A stretch of DNA of 9,675 nt, taken from positions 1-9,675 of the IMG/VR virus record IMGVR_UViG_2698536471_000020; one strand, written 5' to 3'. Position 1 is the first letter of the stretch, and the number at the start of each line of letters is the position of its first letter. The position numbers and the translations under genes are program-made. The notes under the pieces were generated by a model, which worked only from the letters and a program-made list of their open reading frames with translations, did not search any database and had not been told where the DNA came from. This document shows, piece by piece, positions 258 through 9,675 of the stretch. This stretch comes from a virus. Its lineage: Duplodnaviria; Heunggongvirae; Uroviricota; Caudoviricetes.

Positions 258-2147
258 TCAGAGTGAATCTGTCCCGCCTGATTTGACCATACCGCGATAA
301 TCCAGAGCTGCCACACCTGCATCAATACGGACTTTCCAGGCCACGCCGTCAACGATAAAACCTTCCTGCTGTTCAAGGTAAGGCTCGTCATTGCCATCAA
401 GATAAGCCACCTCGATTGTGTCCGTTCCCTGTGCGGAAAGCATGTACCATTGTTTTTCGCTGATATCATCAAGGCGGGGATCGACGATGATATCAAGTAG
501 CTTGTGGTACGGGTTAAAGATCCCGCTGTTTTTATCAGCCCCGAAAGGTGCGGTTGAGTTAATCATCTGCAACGCGCGATCTTCCAGTGCTGCCGGAACT
601 AAAAGGAATTTAGGCGCAATATTCAGCACTTCGCCATTTTTGTCCTTCTGTGTGCGCATCAGGTGACGTGCTGCACTAAGTCCCGGTGTTGTCAGTCCTG
701 CTTCAATCAGGTTGCTGTGTTTTTTGTCAAACAGCGTTATTCCGTCAGAAAGTTTTACGTTGCCTGTAAGCACCAGATTAACCAGATTTCCCACCGTTCT
801 TGATGCTGCACGGCCCATAGCCATTGGCACCGTTGATAACTGATCAAGGTCATCATTGATTATCGCCTGGCGGGTAATGCTGAAAATATTCCCGTAAGTA
901 GCCAGCGCGATGGGTTCACCGCGATCGCTGGTGGTGATGTATTTATATTCTGCCCCTTCCGGAACTTTGTTTAACGTTGAGAAGCCATTCATACCAACGC
1001 GGCGGGCTTCCCGGAAGTTTGAAAGGGAACCTTTTTTCGTCCACTGGCGGAATGTTTCGCCGCTGTGCTCCCAGCCTGCAAGCACTGATTTTTCAGCGCC
1101 ACCAGCAAGGATATCGGTAAAATCGCTGCTGCTGTGGGTGAATGCCGCGTTTACTATCTGCGAGCGTGTGCTGTAGCTGCCCGTGCTTATACCACGATGG
1201 GTTAATGATGCCTGTGCCATATCGAAAAGGCTCATCATGGCGTAAGGATTACCGCGTTCGGCCCGTTCGTGACCAAGACGCGCATTAAGCCCCTGACGCA
1301 TGGCATCGCCAGTTATATTGCCGTTATCCGTGTACGCGTAGTAAAGATTTGCGGGGGTGGTTTTGTTTGTTGGCGTTGATTCTTTACCCATAGCGAGTAA
1401 AAGGCGTTCGCGTGCATTCTCAACGCTACATTCTGAATCCGCAAGACAACTTATAGCCAGGTCGTTATATCTTCCGTTGAAGGTGCCAAACAATTCACGG
1501 ATGCCGTTAAGTCGTTCCTGTTCGCCACTGCCAGTTTTCTGGCTGATCATGCTTTTAATTTTTTCCGGCATATTTGAAAAATCTCCGATTCGTTTTGATT
1601 CAATTCGGGCCATTGCTGTAATCGCGGGTATAACCTCATCTGCGAAACCGTTAGCCTTACACTCATTGCCATCCATCCAGGTTTCCGCCTCCATCATGGA
1701 GGTGATTTCCTGTTTGCTCCTGCCCGTTCTTCCGGCATAGGTTTCTGCCATCGTGTCGCCCAGCTTGTCCATCAGATCAGCAAAGCGGCGAACGTCGCCC
1801 GACACTCCGGCAGTAACACCACGGGGGGCATGTATCATCATCATCGCGTTTTCAGGCATAACGATATGATCTCCACACATGGCAATAAACGAGGCCATAG
1901 AAGCCGCCATGCCTTCAATGTGTACGATTTTTTTTGCCGGATGATTTTTCAGAGCGTTATAGATAGCCAGCCCTTCAAAGATGTCGCCACCAGGTGAATG
2001 GATGCGAAGATGGATTTCAGACGCATTACCACACGCGTTGATCTCGTCAGTAAGTGCCGATGCTTTTACACCGTACCCGCCGATCTCGTCATAAATGCGC
2101 ACATAGACAACATCTGCCATAGCCTTAATGGAAAACCATGTTTTCAT
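258..2147 (-). CDS. Prohead protease (ClpP/S14-like) fused to a scaffold-like linker and a major capsid protein domain (HK97-type, inferred)
   Basis: 629-aa ORF. N-terminal ~190 aa carries ClpP-type signatures (GMAASMAS serine motif, MMMIHAPRG histidine motif). The C-terminal ~300 aa reads as a capsid-like domain by composition and position, not by a specific motif. Start overlaps the upstream small ORF stop (ATGA). Confidence 0.75.
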   Translation of the reverse strand: MKTWFSIKAMADVVYVRIYDEIGGYGVKASALTDEINACGNASEIHLRIHSPGGDIFEGLAIYNALKNHPAKKIVHIEGMAASMASFIAMCGDHIVMPENAMMMIHAPRGVTAGVSGDVRRFADLMDKLGDTMAETYAGRTGRSKQEITSMMEAETWMDGNECKANGFADEVIPAITAMARIESKRIGDFSNMPEKIKSMISQKTGSGEQERLNGIRELFGTFNGRYNDLAISCLADSECSVENARERLLLAMGKESTPTNKTTPANLYYAYTDNGNITGDAMRQGLNARLGHERAERGNPYAMMSLFDMAQASLTHRGISTGSYSTRSQIVNAAFTHSSSDFTDILAGGAEKSVLAGWEHSGETFRQWTKKGSLSNFREARRVGMNGFSTLNKVPEGAEYKYITTSDRGEPIALATYGNIFSITRQAIINDDLDQLSTVPMAMGRAASRTVGNLVNLVLTGNVKLSDGITLFDKKHSNLIEAGLTTPGLSAARHLMRTQKDKNGEVLNIAPKFLLVPAALEDRALQMINSTAPFGADKNSGIFNPYHKLLDIIVDPRLDDISEKQWYMLSAQGTDTIEVAYLDGNDEPYLEQQEGFIVDGVAWKVRIDAGVAALDYRGMVKSGGTDSL

Positions 2148-2804: not shown

Positions 2805-3227
2805 TTAAAACGGTATGTTATCCCCGTACGGATCATCGTTACCCGCCTGTTGTTTTGCCCTGTTCAGTGCGTCAGTAGCCTGCCCCTGCTGGCCTTTTTT
2901 GCCGCCCGGTCGCGCCGTTCTCGCACTGATTACGCTGTCTGCGATAACCTGCCAGCCCTGCCGCGTTTCGCCGTTCTGGCCTGTCCACTGGCTTACCTGC
3001 ATGTTACCCGCCACGCTCACCAGCTCGCCTTTGCGGTGTTTTGCCAGTGCGTCGGCCTGTCTGCCAAACGCCAGGACGGATAACCACATCGTAGCCGTTC
3101 CGTCATCTGCCTGGCTGCACGGCAGGGGGACAGCCATACTCGCCATCGTCATTTGTGTGCCCTTGCTGGTGGTCTTTAACTGTGGGTCAGCCACCAGCCG
3201 CCCGTAAGCCGCTATCTGTGCTGTCAT
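2805..3227 (-). CDS. ssb: Single-stranded DNA-binding protein (SSB-like, OB fold with acidic C-terminal tail)
   Basis: 140-aa ORF. The pattern GRLVADPQLK...WLSVLAFGRQADALAKHRKGELVSVAGNMQVSQWTGQNGETRQGWQVIADSV parallels the E. coli SSB OB-fold core; Gly/Gln-rich linker; C-terminus DDPYGDNIPF resembles the canonical SSB DDDIPF tip. ATG overlaps the upstream ORF stop (ATGA). Confidence 0.75.
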   Translation of the reverse strand: MTAQIAAYGRLVADPQLKTTSKGTQMTMASMAVPLPCSQADDGTATMWLSVLAFGRQADALAKHRKGELVSVAGNMQVSQWTGQNGETRQGWQVIADSVISARTARPGGKKGQQGQATDALNRAKQQAGNDDPYGDNIPF

Positions 3228-3502
3228 GATTCCACCTCTACGTTTTTAACGTTGATGGTTGTCACCTGTTCAGCTTCCGCAATCTCCCGCTCTGTCAGCG
3301 TGGCAAAATTTGCCGCCGTCGTGGTCATGAATGCGCTTATCAGGTCGGGATGTTCCTTCGCGTATCCTTCCCCCGCGTGGCGGTCTATCGTTCTGATTGC
3401 CACCTTTAAAGCGTGCTCTGTCATGTCTAACGCGCGATATTTCGGTTCTGTTCTGTCTCTGTGTTTTTTGAGTGATTTATTAAATTTCCCTGAAGTGTGC
3501 AT
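3224..3502 (-). CDS. Hypothetical protein (92 aa from the ATG at 3502), translationally coupled to ssb-like
   Basis: The track ORF extends to 3553, but the ATG at 3500-3502 is preceded by GAGGGGG and the longer form would run into the iteron array. Function unknown. Confidence 0.45.
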   Translation of the reverse strand: MHTSGKFNKSLKKHRDRTEPKYRALDMTEHALKVAIRTIDRHAGEGYAKEHPDLISAFMTTTAANFATLTEREIAEAEQVTTINVKNVEVES

Positions 3503-6294: not shown

Positions 6295-6496
6295 AAAGCA
6301 TCCCCTGAATATTCGTGTTAATCATTCCGGCACGTTTTGTGATTTCCTGTAATGATTCCCTTGTGGCGACAATTGCTTCATCTGGTAAGTGGTAATTACA
6401 CACCACGCGACCTTTATCCACATTGACCAGTAGCTGCCCTGTGAATTTCTCACGAAACTGAATGCGGTTAAGGTCAGTAAGTGACAGATTAATCAT
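6284..6496 (-). CDS. Hypothetical protein (70 aa from the ATG at 6496), start overlaps the icd-like stop
   Basis: Strong SD AGGAGG 6 nt upstream of the ATG at 6494-6496; ATGATTAA start/stop overlap with the icd-like gene. The track ORF start at 6538 lies inside icd-like and lacks an SD. Confidence 0.5.
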   Translation of the reverse strand: MINLSLTDLNRIQFREKFTGQLLVNVDKGRVVCNYHLPDEAIVATRESLQEITKRAGMINTNIQGMLYAQ

Positions 6497-6677
6497 GGCG
6501 CACCTCCTGACGAATACGGGCGGCAAATACAGCAACACAACCGGACGGGCAACGGTTACGCGCTTCGCGTTCCGTCCAGGCGGTTACGTGGATGATTTGA
6601 TGTTCTGACGCGCCAAAGATGATAAAGCGCCAGAGAAAGGCGGTTTGAGAATGTACAAGGGTAGGGATAGTAGCCAT
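6489..6677 (-). CDS. Icd-like small protein (host cell division inhibitor Icd-like family, 62 aa)
   Basis: It is the C-terminal tail of the 416-codon track ORF, but a strong SD (GAGGAGG) sits 8 nt upstream of the internal ATG at 6675-6677. Sequence MATIPTLVHSQTAFLWRFIIFGASEHQIIHVTAWTEREARNRCPSGCVAVFAARIRQEVRHD fits the remembered Icd-like pattern (F-W-RF ... ERxAR ... FAARxP/Q-E); family assignment is from memory, not a search. Confidence 0.6.
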   Translation of the reverse strand: MATIPTLVHSQTAFLWRFIIFGASEHQIIHVTAWTEREARNRCPSGCVAVFAARIRQEVRHD

Positions 6678-6839
6678 GTTGGCAGCCTCCTCAGTGTGGT
6701 TAAGATAACCGCCACCGGAAACGCCAATTTCGCTGGTGGCGGACTGTACAGGGTTGGCGTAACCGGACACTGAAGAAACCGGCGCGGATTGCTCCGCCCC
6801 CGTACAGCCCACCATTGATAAGGTGTGACTATGCGGCAC

Positions 6840-6861
6840 AAAAAAACACGCGGGGCGCGTG
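6840..6861 (-). terminator. Rho-independent terminator inside the leader upstream of icd-like
   Basis: Minus strand reads CACGCG ccc CGCGTG followed by TTTTTTT (plus-strand A-run 6840-6846, stems 6847-6852 and 6856-6861). Confidence 0.7.
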
Positions 6862-7103
6862 TTATGCGCTTCAGTTTTGCCCAGGACGCCAATCCCGGCA
6901 CCCGTTTTATGAGGTGCGCGGGAATCATAGCCATTTTTGCTGGTGGCGATCAACTGGTTTTTTACACCCGCTTTATTCAGGTTGTGTGAGTCCCGCCCTT
7001 GCGGGTGTGTGGTATGATTTCTCATAGCTACCTCGATACTTTCGCTATCGTTGGTGGTCAGAGGCTGCGAAAGGACGGCAATCCTTTTCAGCCTCGTTTG
7101 CAT

Positions 7104-7207
7104 TGAGTGATAAACACTCAGCTGGATTCCAGTATAATCACTAAGTGGAATCCACTTCAAGCGTTTTGTTTTGGTCTTTTTCGTGTATACTGGATTCCAG
7201 TAATCAC
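7104..7207. promoter_or_regulatory. Divergent promoter/operator region with three TGGAWTCCA palindromes
   Basis: Palindromes CTGGATTCCAG (7122-7132), AAGTGGAATCCACTT (7143-7157), CTGGATTCCAG (7190-7200); extra inverted repeat TGAGTG-ataaa-CACTCA (7104-7120). Minus-strand promoter TTGAAG (7160-7155), 18-nt spacer, TATACT (7136-7131) overlaps the plus-strand TATAAT (7133-7138). Direct repeat CTGGATTCCAGTA(T)AATCAC at 7122-7142 and 7190-7207. Confidence 0.6.
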
Positions 7208-7221
7208 AAAGGGAACCAGAA

Positions 7222-7401
7222 ATGGAAAGAGACCATATCAATAACAAATCACAGAAATTACAGGCTCGCGCCCCGCATGAAGTTGTTGAGGCTATGGAGC
7301 AAGTAAAAGAAACAGGCGAGAGCACTGCGCAATTTATCGTTACAGCCATGCGAGGCGAGATCAAACGCCGCCAGCGCCGTAAGGCCAAAGAATCAGAATA
7401 A
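7222..7401 (+). CDS. Small ribbon-helix-helix-like DNA-binding protein (59 aa; below the ORF-track size cut-off)
   Basis: ATG at 7222 with AGGGA about 8 nt upstream, TAA at 7399-7401. Translation MERDHINNKSQKLQARAPHEVVEAMEQVKETGESTAQFIVTAMRGEIKRRQRRKAKESE has an RHH-like layout (basic strand RAPHEVV, two short helices, basic tail). Sits immediately downstream of the operator palindromes. Confidence 0.45.
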   Translation: MERDHINNKSQKLQARAPHEVVEAMEQVKETGESTAQFIVTAMRGEIKRRQRRKAKESE

Positions 7402-7458
7402 TCACTATCAGCGCCGTGGTGTGAGGTACTACGGCGCATTGCTTTACAGGGCAGTACC

Positions 7459-7832: not shown

Positions 7833-8027
7833 TTAATTGACGCGTTCGCGGTTTTTGACCCACGCCACAACCTCAGACTTAACCCAGCCAACAGAACGAC
7901 CGCCGAGACTGATACGGGAAGGGAAGCGGCCCTGCTTTTCCATCTCGTAACGAGTTGTGCGGCAAACGCCTGTTAGCTCTCTGCATTCTTTTTCGCGGAT
8001 TACACGATCTTCATTTATTTCGCGCAT
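7833..8027 (-). CDS. alpA: AlpA-family transcriptional regulator / excisionase-like protein
   Basis: 64-aa ORF; HTH followed by GGRSVGWVKSEVVAWV matches the AlpA (Phage_AlpA) pattern; located directly downstream of the integrase on the same strand. Confidence 0.8.
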   Translation of the reverse strand: MREINEDRVIREKECRELTGVCRTTRYEMEKQGRFPSRISLGGRSVGWVKSEVVAWVKNRERVN

Positions 8028-8436: not shown

Positions 8437-9675
8437 TCAAGAATTTTGAGAGTAAATTCGCGGGGTCATAACAACGATTTTTTCATCATTGTTCTGGAGA
8501 AGCTCGAGACGCTCAACCCATAGATTAAGAGCGTCACGTTTTGCATCGAGATAACGGGAGTGATTATAGACTCGTTGCACTCCTGGCAACTGGTGCGCGG
8601 TTAGCTGCTCCACTACATGAGGATCCACGCCTAAATCGTTCAGCATCGTTGTAAACGTGTGCCGGATGTCGTGCAACGTCCAGGGGGCTTGATTAATGCG
8701 TCTGTGTGCCGTTCTTCCGTACTCTGATACAGATGATTGCCCTTTCAGTTCTCCGAGCAATAAGCCTGTATGCCTGTTCTGCTCAACCAGCTGCGTGACG
8801 AACGGCAAGATCGCTTCCGGTATAGGCCGGAATATTGCTACCTTCGTTTTGCTGTGCTCCTTCGGAACGGTCCAGAGCATTTCTTTAAAATCCCATTCCT
8901 GGACCTCAGAGCGTCTTAGCTCAGTGGTACGGCATCCGAAGACAATCAGGAGGCGAATCAGGGCGCTGTAGTACGGTGGGTAAATTTTTTCATCCAGGGC
9001 GCGGAGTAATTCCCCAAGCTCCTTGTTTGTTAGTACGCGCTGGCTTATTTCTGCTTTTTTCCCAACATCACCGACAACCATATCATCAAGAACGTTGCTG
9101 ATTGCGTAGCGTCGTTTGCGGCAGTACTTAAGCGCCTGCTTGCATACCTGCAACAAAAAACCTGCTGATACCGGATTACGCTTAGCAAGCTGATCAAAAC
9201 AGGTCAGCCAGTGGCGTAGCTCGCATTTTTCCAGCGGCATAGCACCAATCTGGCTGATTATGTGTGTATTGATCCGGCTCTTCAGAGATTCGTAGTCTGT
9301 GCGCTTTTCCTTCGCGTACGATTCAAGCCAGTAAGTGAGCGCTTCCTTAACCGTAACAGGTGATAACGCTTCCTGTACGGTGTGATTAAGCTCATGGCGT
9401 GGATTTTTCCCCTCAGCAAGCCAGGCGCGACACTGCGCCGCTTTTTCCCTGGCTGCTTTCAGGCTCAAATCAGGATAATTTCCCAGCCTCAGACGTTCAG
9501 GGGATACCTTCCTGCCTGTTCCGGCCCTGTAAGTGAAATACCAGGTTAACAGGCCATTGGTTGAATGCCTTACGCTAAGGTTGCCACCATCATTAAAAAA
9601 GGTGTTTTTTGTGGTTGGTGATCCGCTTAATTTTCGTAAAAGAGTGTCGCTAAGTCTATGAATTGCCCTGCTCAT
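8437..9675 (-). CDS. int: Tyrosine-type site-specific integrase (P4-type, arm-binding N-terminal domain)
   Basis: 412-aa ORF with catalytic-domain signatures in the translation: GCRTTELRRSE (box I Arg), LHDIRHTFTT (H-x-x-R), VYNHSRYLD (catalytic Tyr region). The ATG is the last 3 nt of the window, so the true start and the att site cannot be verified. Confidence 0.85.
   Translation of the reverse strand: MSRAIHRLSDTLLRKLSGSPTTKNTFFNDGGNLSVRHSTNGLLTWYFTYRAGTGRKVSPERLRLGNYPDLSLKAAREKAAQCRAWLAEGKNPRHELNHTVQEALSPVTVKEALTYWLESYAKEKRTDYESLKSRINTHIISQIGAMPLEKCELRHWLTCFDQLAKRNPVSAGFLLQVCKQALKYCRKRRYAISNVLDDMVVGDVGKKAEISQRVLTNKELGELLRALDEKIYPPYYSALIRLLIVFGCRTTELRRSEVQEWDFKEMLWTVPKEHSKTKVAIFRPIPEAILPFVTQLVEQNRHTGLLLGELKGQSSVSEYGRTAHRRINQAPWTLHDIRHTFTTMLNDLGVDPHVVEQLTAHQLPGVQRVYNHSRYLDAKRDALNLWVERLELLQNNDEKIVVMTPRIYSQNS

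Follow-up and report, generated by a model that had tools for sequence, protein, structure and literature searches.

The window, meaning the whole stretch of 9,675 nucleotides analyzed here, very probably (roughly nine chances in ten) carries an antisense-RNA immunity module of the P4/P1 family, located ahead of an operon with icd(kil)-like and primase genes in a PICI-type satellite. This assignment is built on homology, architecture and covariation of the pairings, whereas RNA processing and stability, Rho dependence and the immunity phenotype are those that we infer by homology, together with the direction in which the a1 and b1 sites act. The initial annotation had described an attenuation-type leader with a possible RNA switch upstream of the icd-like gene. 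All of the leader features it named are present on the minus strand, with coordinates agreeing to within 0-2 nt, and its reading is supported in essence. The system itself is already known, as prior literature equates isrK with P4 seqA and C4 with P4 CI, and no new kind of mechanism is revealed. The features of the leader are far beyond chance by Rfam scores, folding, the rank of the b2 target and covariation.

Two adjacent RNAs and their pairing sites

We scanned the whole window with Rfam covariance models, using gathering scores of 45 for C4, 50 for isrK and 46.7 for c4-a1b1. Exactly two matches exceeded their gathering scores, and these are adjacent and both on the minus strand. The isrK-like RNA (RF01394, P4 seqA-like) spans 6917-6841 with 66 bits (E 1e-12) over model positions 1-77 of 77. 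The C4 antisense RNA (RF01695, P4 CI-type) spans 6819-6732 with 77.6 bits (E 2.8e-14) over model positions 1-87 of 87, so that the C4 scan put forward by the initial annotation returned a full-length match well over the threshold. The sister model c4-a1b1 (RF03163) reached 21.2 bits in the window, below its gathering score. No riboswitch or leader family matched at E-values up to 5.

The isrK-like RNA comprises hairpin 1, a hairpin 2 with site a1 in its loop (UUGGCGU, 6892-6886), a linker with site b1 and an intrinsic terminator, all on the minus strand. Site a1 is complementary to a' of C4, and b1 (AAACUGAAGCGC, 6877-6866, with the core ACUGAAG at 6875-6869) is complementary to the b' loop of C4. 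b1 ends in GCGC and holds no Shine-Dalgarno (SD) sequence; in the specificity class of the window it is weaker, with a 7-bp core and mismatches on the flanks. The terminator (6862-6840) has a G+C-rich stem of 8 bp, five of them G-C pairs, followed by TTTTTTT. Hairpin and U-run thus agree with the strong terminator that had been described here, but rather than a generic attenuator the structure is the 3' end of the isrK/seqA-like RNA, matching isrK model positions 56-77. A classical leader-peptide or riboswitch attenuator was rejected, as no such family matched and the terminator belongs to the isrK match. Production of both C4 and the mRNA would need read-through of this terminator.

C4 is built as a long closing helix around two hairpins. 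The closing helix is tRNA-acceptor-like, with the 7-bp end GGUGGGC/GUCCGCC followed by ACC(A), as in P1, and the acceptor-like end with ACCA provides RNase P substrate features that are visible in the sequence. From the annotated ends of P1 C4, the mature RNA is predicted to be about 79 nt long (6813-6735). Two segments of C4 have partners in the downstream RNA. The single-stranded junction a' (ACGCCAA, 6760-6754) forms 7 bp with the a2 target (UUGGCGU, 6727-6721), at a fixed offset of about +23 nt. The 12-nt loop of hairpin 2, b' (UUUCUUCAGUGU, 6778-6767), whose first four bases UUUC are the anti-SD part, forms 12 bp with the b2 target (ACACUGAGGAGG, 6697-6686). b2 includes the SD GAGGAGG (6692-6686), which ends 8 nt before the AUG of the icd-like gene (6677-6675). 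The initial annotation had noticed most of this second pairing, as a segment CUUCAGUGU (6775-6767) complementary to ACACUGAGG (6697-6689) beside the SD. The segment proves to be the b' loop and its partner the b2 target, and the duplex grows to the full 12 bp. No other position in the 9.7-kb window complements the b' loop as well as b2, and we found no further C4 targets elsewhere in the window. Whole-RNA RNAduplex and cofold energies returned either long non-specific duplexes or no intermolecular pairing, and were set aside in favor of covariation.

The icd-like ORF, which resembles P4 kil, starts directly after b2 (6677-6489, minus strand; 62 aa, MATIPTLVHS...). It matches NCBIfam NF033153 with 57.3 bits (cut-off 25), the same model that P4 Kil matches with 73.9 bits. 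Co-oriented, overlapping genes follow on the minus strand from 6496 to 3788: three ORFs (6496-6284, 6294-6064 and 6074-5844), a DUF4222 gene (5838-5539) and a D5/P4-type primase-helicase gene (5542-3788). Presumably, the RNA module controls all of these genes.

The leader stem described in the initial annotation was also recovered. It forms a hairpin at 6742-6709 (minus strand) in which an outer helix pairs CCGCCACC (6742-6735) with GGUGGCGG (6716-6709), an inner stem pairs GAAA with UUUC, and a2 lies in the loop. The C4 closing helix uses the 5' arm of this hairpin (6742-6735) as its own 3' arm, so that the two helices compete and are mutually exclusive. The competing hairpin forms in the minimum free-energy (MFE) structure of the full, unprocessed transcript, in which a1/b1 also pair with a'/b' in cis. 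Folding of the 266-nt transcript, one of the checks suggested at the outset, gave z = -4.5, with 0 of 200 shuffled sequences folding equally well.

Covariation among homologous loci

To retrieve homologs, we searched with the C4 hairpin-2 stem and the AACCC motif as the sole fixed elements, and obtained at least 120 viral contigs. Hairpin 2 is uninformative for covariation because the search pattern fixed it. Across the contigs, 30 distinct b' loops and 19 distinct a' junctions combine in 43 ways, which we treat as specificity classes. The b' that best matched a downstream flank was the cognate one in 32 of the 43 classes, compared with about 1.4 expected by chance; for a' this held in 26 of the 43. 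The offsets of the sites are constant, and in every case b2 continues into GGAG(G), 6-9 nt 5' of the start codon. In b1, which is a copy of b2, the GGAGG is replaced and the site ends in GGCGA, GGCGG or GCGC. In 19 of 20 diverse loci, isrK adjoins C4.

Pair counts for the C4 half were taken from an alignment of 61 sequences. The C4 closing helix was paired in 95.7% of cells, with 11 of 17 pairs compensatory, and C4 hairpin 1 in 98%, with 5 of 5 compensatory. For the two target duplexes, the values were 82.3% of cells and 8 of 12 compensatory pairs for b'/b2, and 86.2% and 6 of 7 for a'/a2. The C4 fold with both duplexes was 91.5% paired overall, against 75.1% in shuffles (0 of 500 reached the observed value) and 35-48% with slid partners. 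The upstream half, counted in an alignment of 84 sequences, behaved similarly: isrK hairpin 1 was paired in 96.8% of cells (6/6 pairs compensatory), isrK hairpin 2 in 91.2% (3/5), a1/a' in 96.8% (4/6) and b1/b' in 93.2% (8/9). Here the isrK fold with a1/a' and b1/b' was 89.8% paired, against 71% in shuffles (0/500). The competing hairpin covaries among homologs as well, with 90.8% paired and 6 of 8 pairs compensatory in the outer helix and 88% and 4 of 4 in the inner one, compared with 35-67% for slid controls. All four long-range pairings and the informative helices are thus supported by covariation across about 60-84 homologous loci, a check that the initial annotation had suggested.

The b' loop of the window occurs in 16 viral contigs, which include two a-classes. 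In near-identical relatives, a', a1 and a2 switch together, from ACGCCAA/UUGGCG to AGGCUAA/UUAGCC. All 16 contigs are satellite-type and have the same Icd-like ORF after the module, with no phage of matching b' specificity among them. The sequences of the a and b sites offer a simple predictor of co-immune versus hetero-immune satellites and phages. To our knowledge, the site-by-site covariation, the reassortment of a and b and the competing hairpin are apparently undescribed in the reports on PICIs and on the Stx2 phage F039 that are discussed below.

Promoters and a nested reading frame

A consensus scan of the minus strand located a candidate promoter at 6953-6924 that resembles the internal promoter PLE of P4, with a -35 box TTGATC (6953-6948), an 18-nt spacer and a -10 box TATGAT (6929-6924). 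It ends 7 nt before isrK position 1, and the predicted transcription start is at about 6917. In the c4-a1b1 alignment, the 5' flank of the model falls on this -10 box. Both boxes align with those of homologs, and the -10 box also aligns with that of the P1 promoter P1c4 (P51b). Among homologs, the internal promoter-like site and the terminator are conserved in position. The initial annotation had instead started the transcript from a promoter at 7160-7131. A sigma-70-like site is indeed found there on the minus strand (TTGAAG-18-TATACT, consensus scan), but the transcript's own promoter is probably the one at 6953-6924, directly 5' of isrK. By P4 logic (PMC10111431), the upstream site may correspond to the P4 late promoter PLL. 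A divergent plus-strand promoter (7111-7138) for a YlcI/YnfO gene (7222-7401, plus strand) has a -10 box that overlaps the one of this upstream site.

An open frame passes through both RNAs in frame with the icd/kil-like ORF. On the minus strand it is open from 7739 to the stop at 6489 (416 aa), with a candidate start AUG at 7025-7023 that is preceded by an SD (GAGG, 7034-7031) and lies between the promoter at 7160-7131 and the internal promoter. The nested ORF beginning there (7025-6489) is eta-like: the frame is 32% identical to P4 Eta (E 1e-7), and the translation over approximately 6929-6681 matches Pfam Phage_ASH with 54.6 bits. The P4 ORF at 8812-8168 has the same composition, a Phage_ASH domain followed by an Icd-like domain. 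In P4, eta and kil are published nested genes, and the ORF and the RNAs coexist (PMC10111431). An alternative-frame ORF of 116 aa (6584-6934) had no family match. The internal promoter and the eta/kil-type nested ORF, like the a'/a2 pairing, did not appear in the initial annotation.

We considered whether the region is merely protein-coding (Ash/Eta family) or a plain terminator attenuator, with the RNA matches being incidental. The long open frame, its Phage_ASH score and the RefSeq annotation of the isrK/C4 region in relatives as 'ash family protein' speak for a coding region, as does the state of the frame in homologs: 66% of specificity classes keep it open over 245 nt or more ahead of the gene start, compared with values of 31% and 9% in the two alternative frames. 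Yet codon-position variability in the eta frame is 0.96, 1.00 and 0.94 bits, without 3-nt periodicity, and among homologs the loops and junctions differ in length by 1-2 nt. RNA-compensatory substitutions in nine helices or duplexes, the full-length matches to both covariance models and the coexistence of ORF and RNAs in P4 also argue against a purely coding region, and we regard this explanation as highly improbable. Since the frame is kept open with neither codon periodicity nor constant length, selection appears to act on the open frame plus RNA structure rather than on protein sequence. We also rejected a reading of 'Ash' as nothing but translated RNA genes: given the published P4 genes (PMC10111431) and the frame test, the frame is the counterpart of P4 eta/kil and is conserved as open. 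CDSs labeled 'Ash family protein' in RefSeq and PICI papers cover isrK, C4 and the eta-like frame, and should be read as an immunity region.

Proposed regulation, related modules and the host island

The antisense-RNA immunity module would operate as follows. Transcription from 6953-6924 would begin at about 6917, and most transcripts would end at the terminator (6862-6840), giving an IsrK/seqA-like RNA of about 77 nt with a1 and b1. Read-through transcripts would carry the C4/CI RNA, which by P1/P4 homology would be cut by RNase P at its 5' end and trimmed at its 3' end; C4 has been described as an RNase P substrate (PMC2190699). Mature C4 would bind the mRNA through junction a' at a2 and loop b' at b2. 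As b2 covers the SD of the icd-like gene, we propose that translation is blocked. Rho would then terminate the untranslated RNA, as in P1 and P4, and the replication genes would stay silent, which would be the immune state. The a1/b1 copies would compete for C4, either as part of the leader or on a free RNA that serves as a decoy. In cis they could help termination or folding; in trans they could titrate C4, a possibility suggested by the Gifsy-1 data. Transcripts from the upstream promoter could translate the eta-like ORF through the RNA region and so bypass immunity as in P4. For the window this bypass is speculative, because alpA is not adjacent to the module as it is in P4 and two opposite-strand genes intervene.

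From the -10 box through to the AUG, the window can be aligned collinearly with both P4 and P1, and these two have the same Rfam pattern. The initial annotation was thus right to liken the leader to P1 c4 and P4 CI; the relation is one of homology, not the analogy it proposed. In P4, C4 scores 74.9 bits (8507-8420, within the old CDS of a 'cI gene product'), isrK scores 60.8 and c4-a1b1 scores 44. The parts follow in the same order as in the window, with an internal promoter, isrK/seqA with its terminator, C4/CI, and a2/b2 (seqC) on the SD of a Kil/Icd-like gene. An eta-like frame likewise crosses the RNAs, the Kil-type ORF likewise starts with MAT..., and a P4-type primase-helicase likewise lies downstream. 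The six a/b sites of the window all have P4 counterparts, but with other sequences. Those of P4 are GUGAGAA for a1 (isrK hairpin-2 loop), UUCUCAC for a' and GUGAGAA for a2, together with UAUCCUGUGAAG for b', UUCACAGGAGG for b2, on the SD of Kil (MATTLTP...), and UUCACAGGCGA for b1. The isrK terminator and C4 are also spaced differently, about 107 nt apart in P4 and 21 nt in the window, and between the module and the alpA/vis homolog of the window lie two opposite-strand genes and palindromic repeats.

In a P4-style alternative, C4/CI would pair with seqA (a1/b1) and seqC (a2/b2) on the nascent RNA and promote premature termination directly, with termination as the primary event and masking of the ribosome-binding site as a secondary one. 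The window shares every element with P4, and the a1/b1 sites covary with C4 as tightly as a2/b2 do. In the P4 literature, as far as PMC4825925 and PMC10111431 relay it, CI-dependent premature termination needs both seqA and seqC. Against this order of events, b2 always overlaps the SD and b1 is a copy lacking GGAGG, which argues for ribosome exclusion at b2 as the selected feature. Moreover, a scan of the minus strand from 6840 to 6400 found no intrinsic terminator, with none downstream of C4. Work by Biere (1992) and Forti (1999) reportedly traced termination in P1 and P4 to lack of translation, which would also count against termination as the primary event. We therefore consider a termination-first mode possible but doubtful.

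In P1, C4 scores 68.8 bits, c4-a1b1 51 and isrK 35, the last overlapping c4-a1b1. The P1/P7 immI region shows the same arrangement, and NC_005856 annotates promoters, a1, b1, c4, a2, b2, icd and ant in this order. The placement of a' in the junction and of b' in the loop matches that in the window, b2 likewise extends into the SD, an Icd-family ORF comes next, and the acceptor-like closing helix ends in ...CCACC. P1 differs in that its operon controls an antirepressor (ant), whereas the operon of the window encodes replication functions. In addition, the a1b1 region of P1 passes the c4-a1b1 model and falls under the isrK threshold, and in the window this is reversed.

The Salmonella prophage Gifsy-1 (IsrK-orf45/STnc1160-anrP) also has an IsrK with a read-through terminator and a processed RNA of about 80 nt downstream. 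IsrK has been called a structural homolog of SeqA, and STnc1160 was suggested to act like CI (Hershko-Shalev et al. 2016, PMC4825925). In that system, compensatory mutants proved the pairing of G28 and G31 in the middle hairpin of IsrK with C162 and C159 (PMC4825925). By our own numbering from the Rfam isrK alignment, G28 and G31 map to a1 of the window, so that the helix of G28/C162 and G31/C159 would be the a1/a' pairing. Gifsy-1 differs from the window in being a lambdoid prophage that has an antirepressor gene downstream and no icd-like gene, and in its published model, in which IsrK is an activator and the C4 position is interpreted as orf45, a translated ORF that overlaps C4.

By this model, an IsrK-like RNA would act positively in the window too, opening an inhibitory structure in trans, and C4 would be merely part of the mRNA (orf45/Ash). 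In Gifsy-1, IsrK in trans raises downstream translation more than 100-fold and orf45 is translated, and the cis pairing of a1/b1 with a'/b' in the MFE of the window resembles 'structure A' of Gifsy-1 (PMC4825925). A C4 acting purely in cis would nevertheless make a2 and b2 superfluous, and these sites covary with C4 and sit on the SD of the icd-like gene. A processed RNA of about 80 nt (STnc1160) was in fact detected at the C4 position of Gifsy-1 (PMC4825925), and the homologs of C4 in P1 and P4 have been proven to repress in trans. Positive control of this type is unlikely to be the main mode here. If IsrK is a decoy for C4, positive control in Gifsy-1 and repression by C4 are compatible. Given the IsrK activator model, the sign and mode of a1/b1 action may differ between elements.

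Tandem C4 and isrK matches lie between the integration and replication zones of Gram-negative and helper-embedded PICIs (Mageeney et al. 2023, PMC10111431), and 'immunity repressor RNAs' are listed in the PICI organization given there. In the Stx2 phage F039 (LC710660), isrK and C4 are annotated in tandem as ncRNAs. Both reports (PMC10111431 and LC710660) differ from our analysis in giving model matches only. The present case is a clean, fully dissected example of the P4/P1 RNA immunity switch, in which both recognition sites occur three times, before a PICI-type replication operon. A broader picture can be offered tentatively, and we do not consider it probable as a whole. In it, the C4 RNA, not a protein, would be the master replication repressor; a and b would form a two-site combinatorial immunity code, reassorting independently between islands; modules could be stacked two or three in series as 'locks'; and an upstream divergent-promoter/palindrome switch beside the YlcI/YnfO gene would provide a helper-responsive bypass that drives translation of the eta-like frame through the RNA genes.

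The remaining genes of the window describe the element that carries the module. On the minus strand, int (8437-9675) and AlpA (7833-8027) lie on one side of it, and SSB (2805-3227) and a ClpP-protease/HK97-capsid fusion (258-2147) on the other. Among complete E. coli islands, the nearest one covers 87% of the window at 93.9% identity. This homolog, in E. coli 2011C-4251, is about 10.5 kb long, lies between clpS and cspD and ends with a PerC gene; it contains no portal or terminase genes. The gene order is int, AlpA, primase, SSB, ClpP-protease/capsid fusion and PerC, and its gene content and site agree with the definition of a Gram-negative PICI. Judged by gene content, the element is classified as a Gram-negative PICI-type satellite. 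A P4-like satellite in the sense of SatelliteFinder (int, alpA, alpha, epsilon, sid, psu, delta) was rejected, since only int, alpA and a P4-type primase-helicase are in common. Neither the window nor the complete homolog in E. coli 2011C-4251 yielded a sid, psu, delta or epsilon gene, and where P4 has these genes the window has SSB, DUF4222 and the ClpP-protease/capsid fusion instead. The island is thus not a strict P4-like satellite, yet its immunity and replication front end is P4-type. DNA similar to a 751-nt query containing the module and the icd-like gene was found in 2109 of 5426 complete E. coli genomes (approximately 39%).

Recognition sequences of the C4 RNA and tandem modules

The C4 antisense RNA carries two recognition segments, a' in a junction and b' in a loop, each with complementary sites. 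Across viral loci L005-L124, which are homologous to the window, the a and b recognition sequences have been reassorted independently of each other. Five different a' sequences were found with the b' sequence UUUCCGUAUGCG, and at least seven different b' loops occurred with the a' sequence ACGCCAA. At the sequence level, this independent reassortment suggests a combinatorial immunity code read at two sites.

In two of the viral loci, the unit comprising the isrK-like RNA, the C4 RNA and the Icd-like gene is repeated head-to-tail with a period of 656 nt: three times in L019 (9709-11209, minus strand) and twice in L094 (10288-11132, minus strand). The copies that were examined differ from one another in a'/b' specificity, and the repeated modules could act as immunity "locks" in series. 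Several E. coli matches carry the RefSeq label "Icd-like protein (x2)", which may reflect the same head-to-tail repetition.

Hairpins and divergent promoters around the leader

The conserved hairpin at 6709-6742 (minus strand) displays a2, one of the sites complementary to a'. Because it recruits the 3' arm of the closing helix of C4, only one of these structures can form at a time. This competition might time processing, or it might restrict the presentation of a2 to unprocessed transcripts. Further upstream, a G+C-rich hairpin of 8 bp, GAGGCUGA...GCAGCCUC, at 7060-7094 (minus strand), separates the upstream promoter from the candidate start of the P4 eta-like frame; it had no Rfam match. In most E. 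coli relatives, similarity to the window is lost upstream of about 7062.

Two divergent promoters with overlapping -10 boxes were located in this upstream region, one directed toward the YlcI/YnfO gene (7111-7138, plus strand) and the other toward the RNA module (7160-7131, minus strand). They are flanked by two exact copies of the 13-nt repeat CTGGATTCCAGTA (7122-7134 and 7190-7202), which has the palindromic core CTGGAnTCCAG, and by the related sequence GTGGAATCCAC at about 7144-7154. From its sequence, the arrangement at 7111-7202 looks like an operator-controlled switch. Directly after the YlcI/YnfO gene, a terminator-like 12-bp hairpin (7411-7437, plus strand) falls within a long minus-strand open frame.

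Ash annotation and the protease/capsid gene

The Pfam "Ash protein family" (PF10554) and the RefSeq "ash family protein" coding sequences correspond to the isrK and C4 RNA genes translated in the eta frame. The stretches concerned are 6681-6929 (minus strand) in the window, 2834-3382 in locus L002 and 8171-8584 in P4 (L004). In a paper on PICIs, "Ash family protein" figures as one of the best-conserved coding sequences of EcCIMP1-like islands, and the RNAs go unmentioned.

Elsewhere in the window, a single 629-aa ORF (258-2147, minus strand) encodes a ClpP-like prohead protease fused with an HK97-type major capsid protein. In the homologous island of E. coli 2011C-4251, no other morphogenetic gene accompanies the fusion, and a gene for a PerC regulator comes next. 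Such content is unusual for a PICI that lacks portal and terminase genes.
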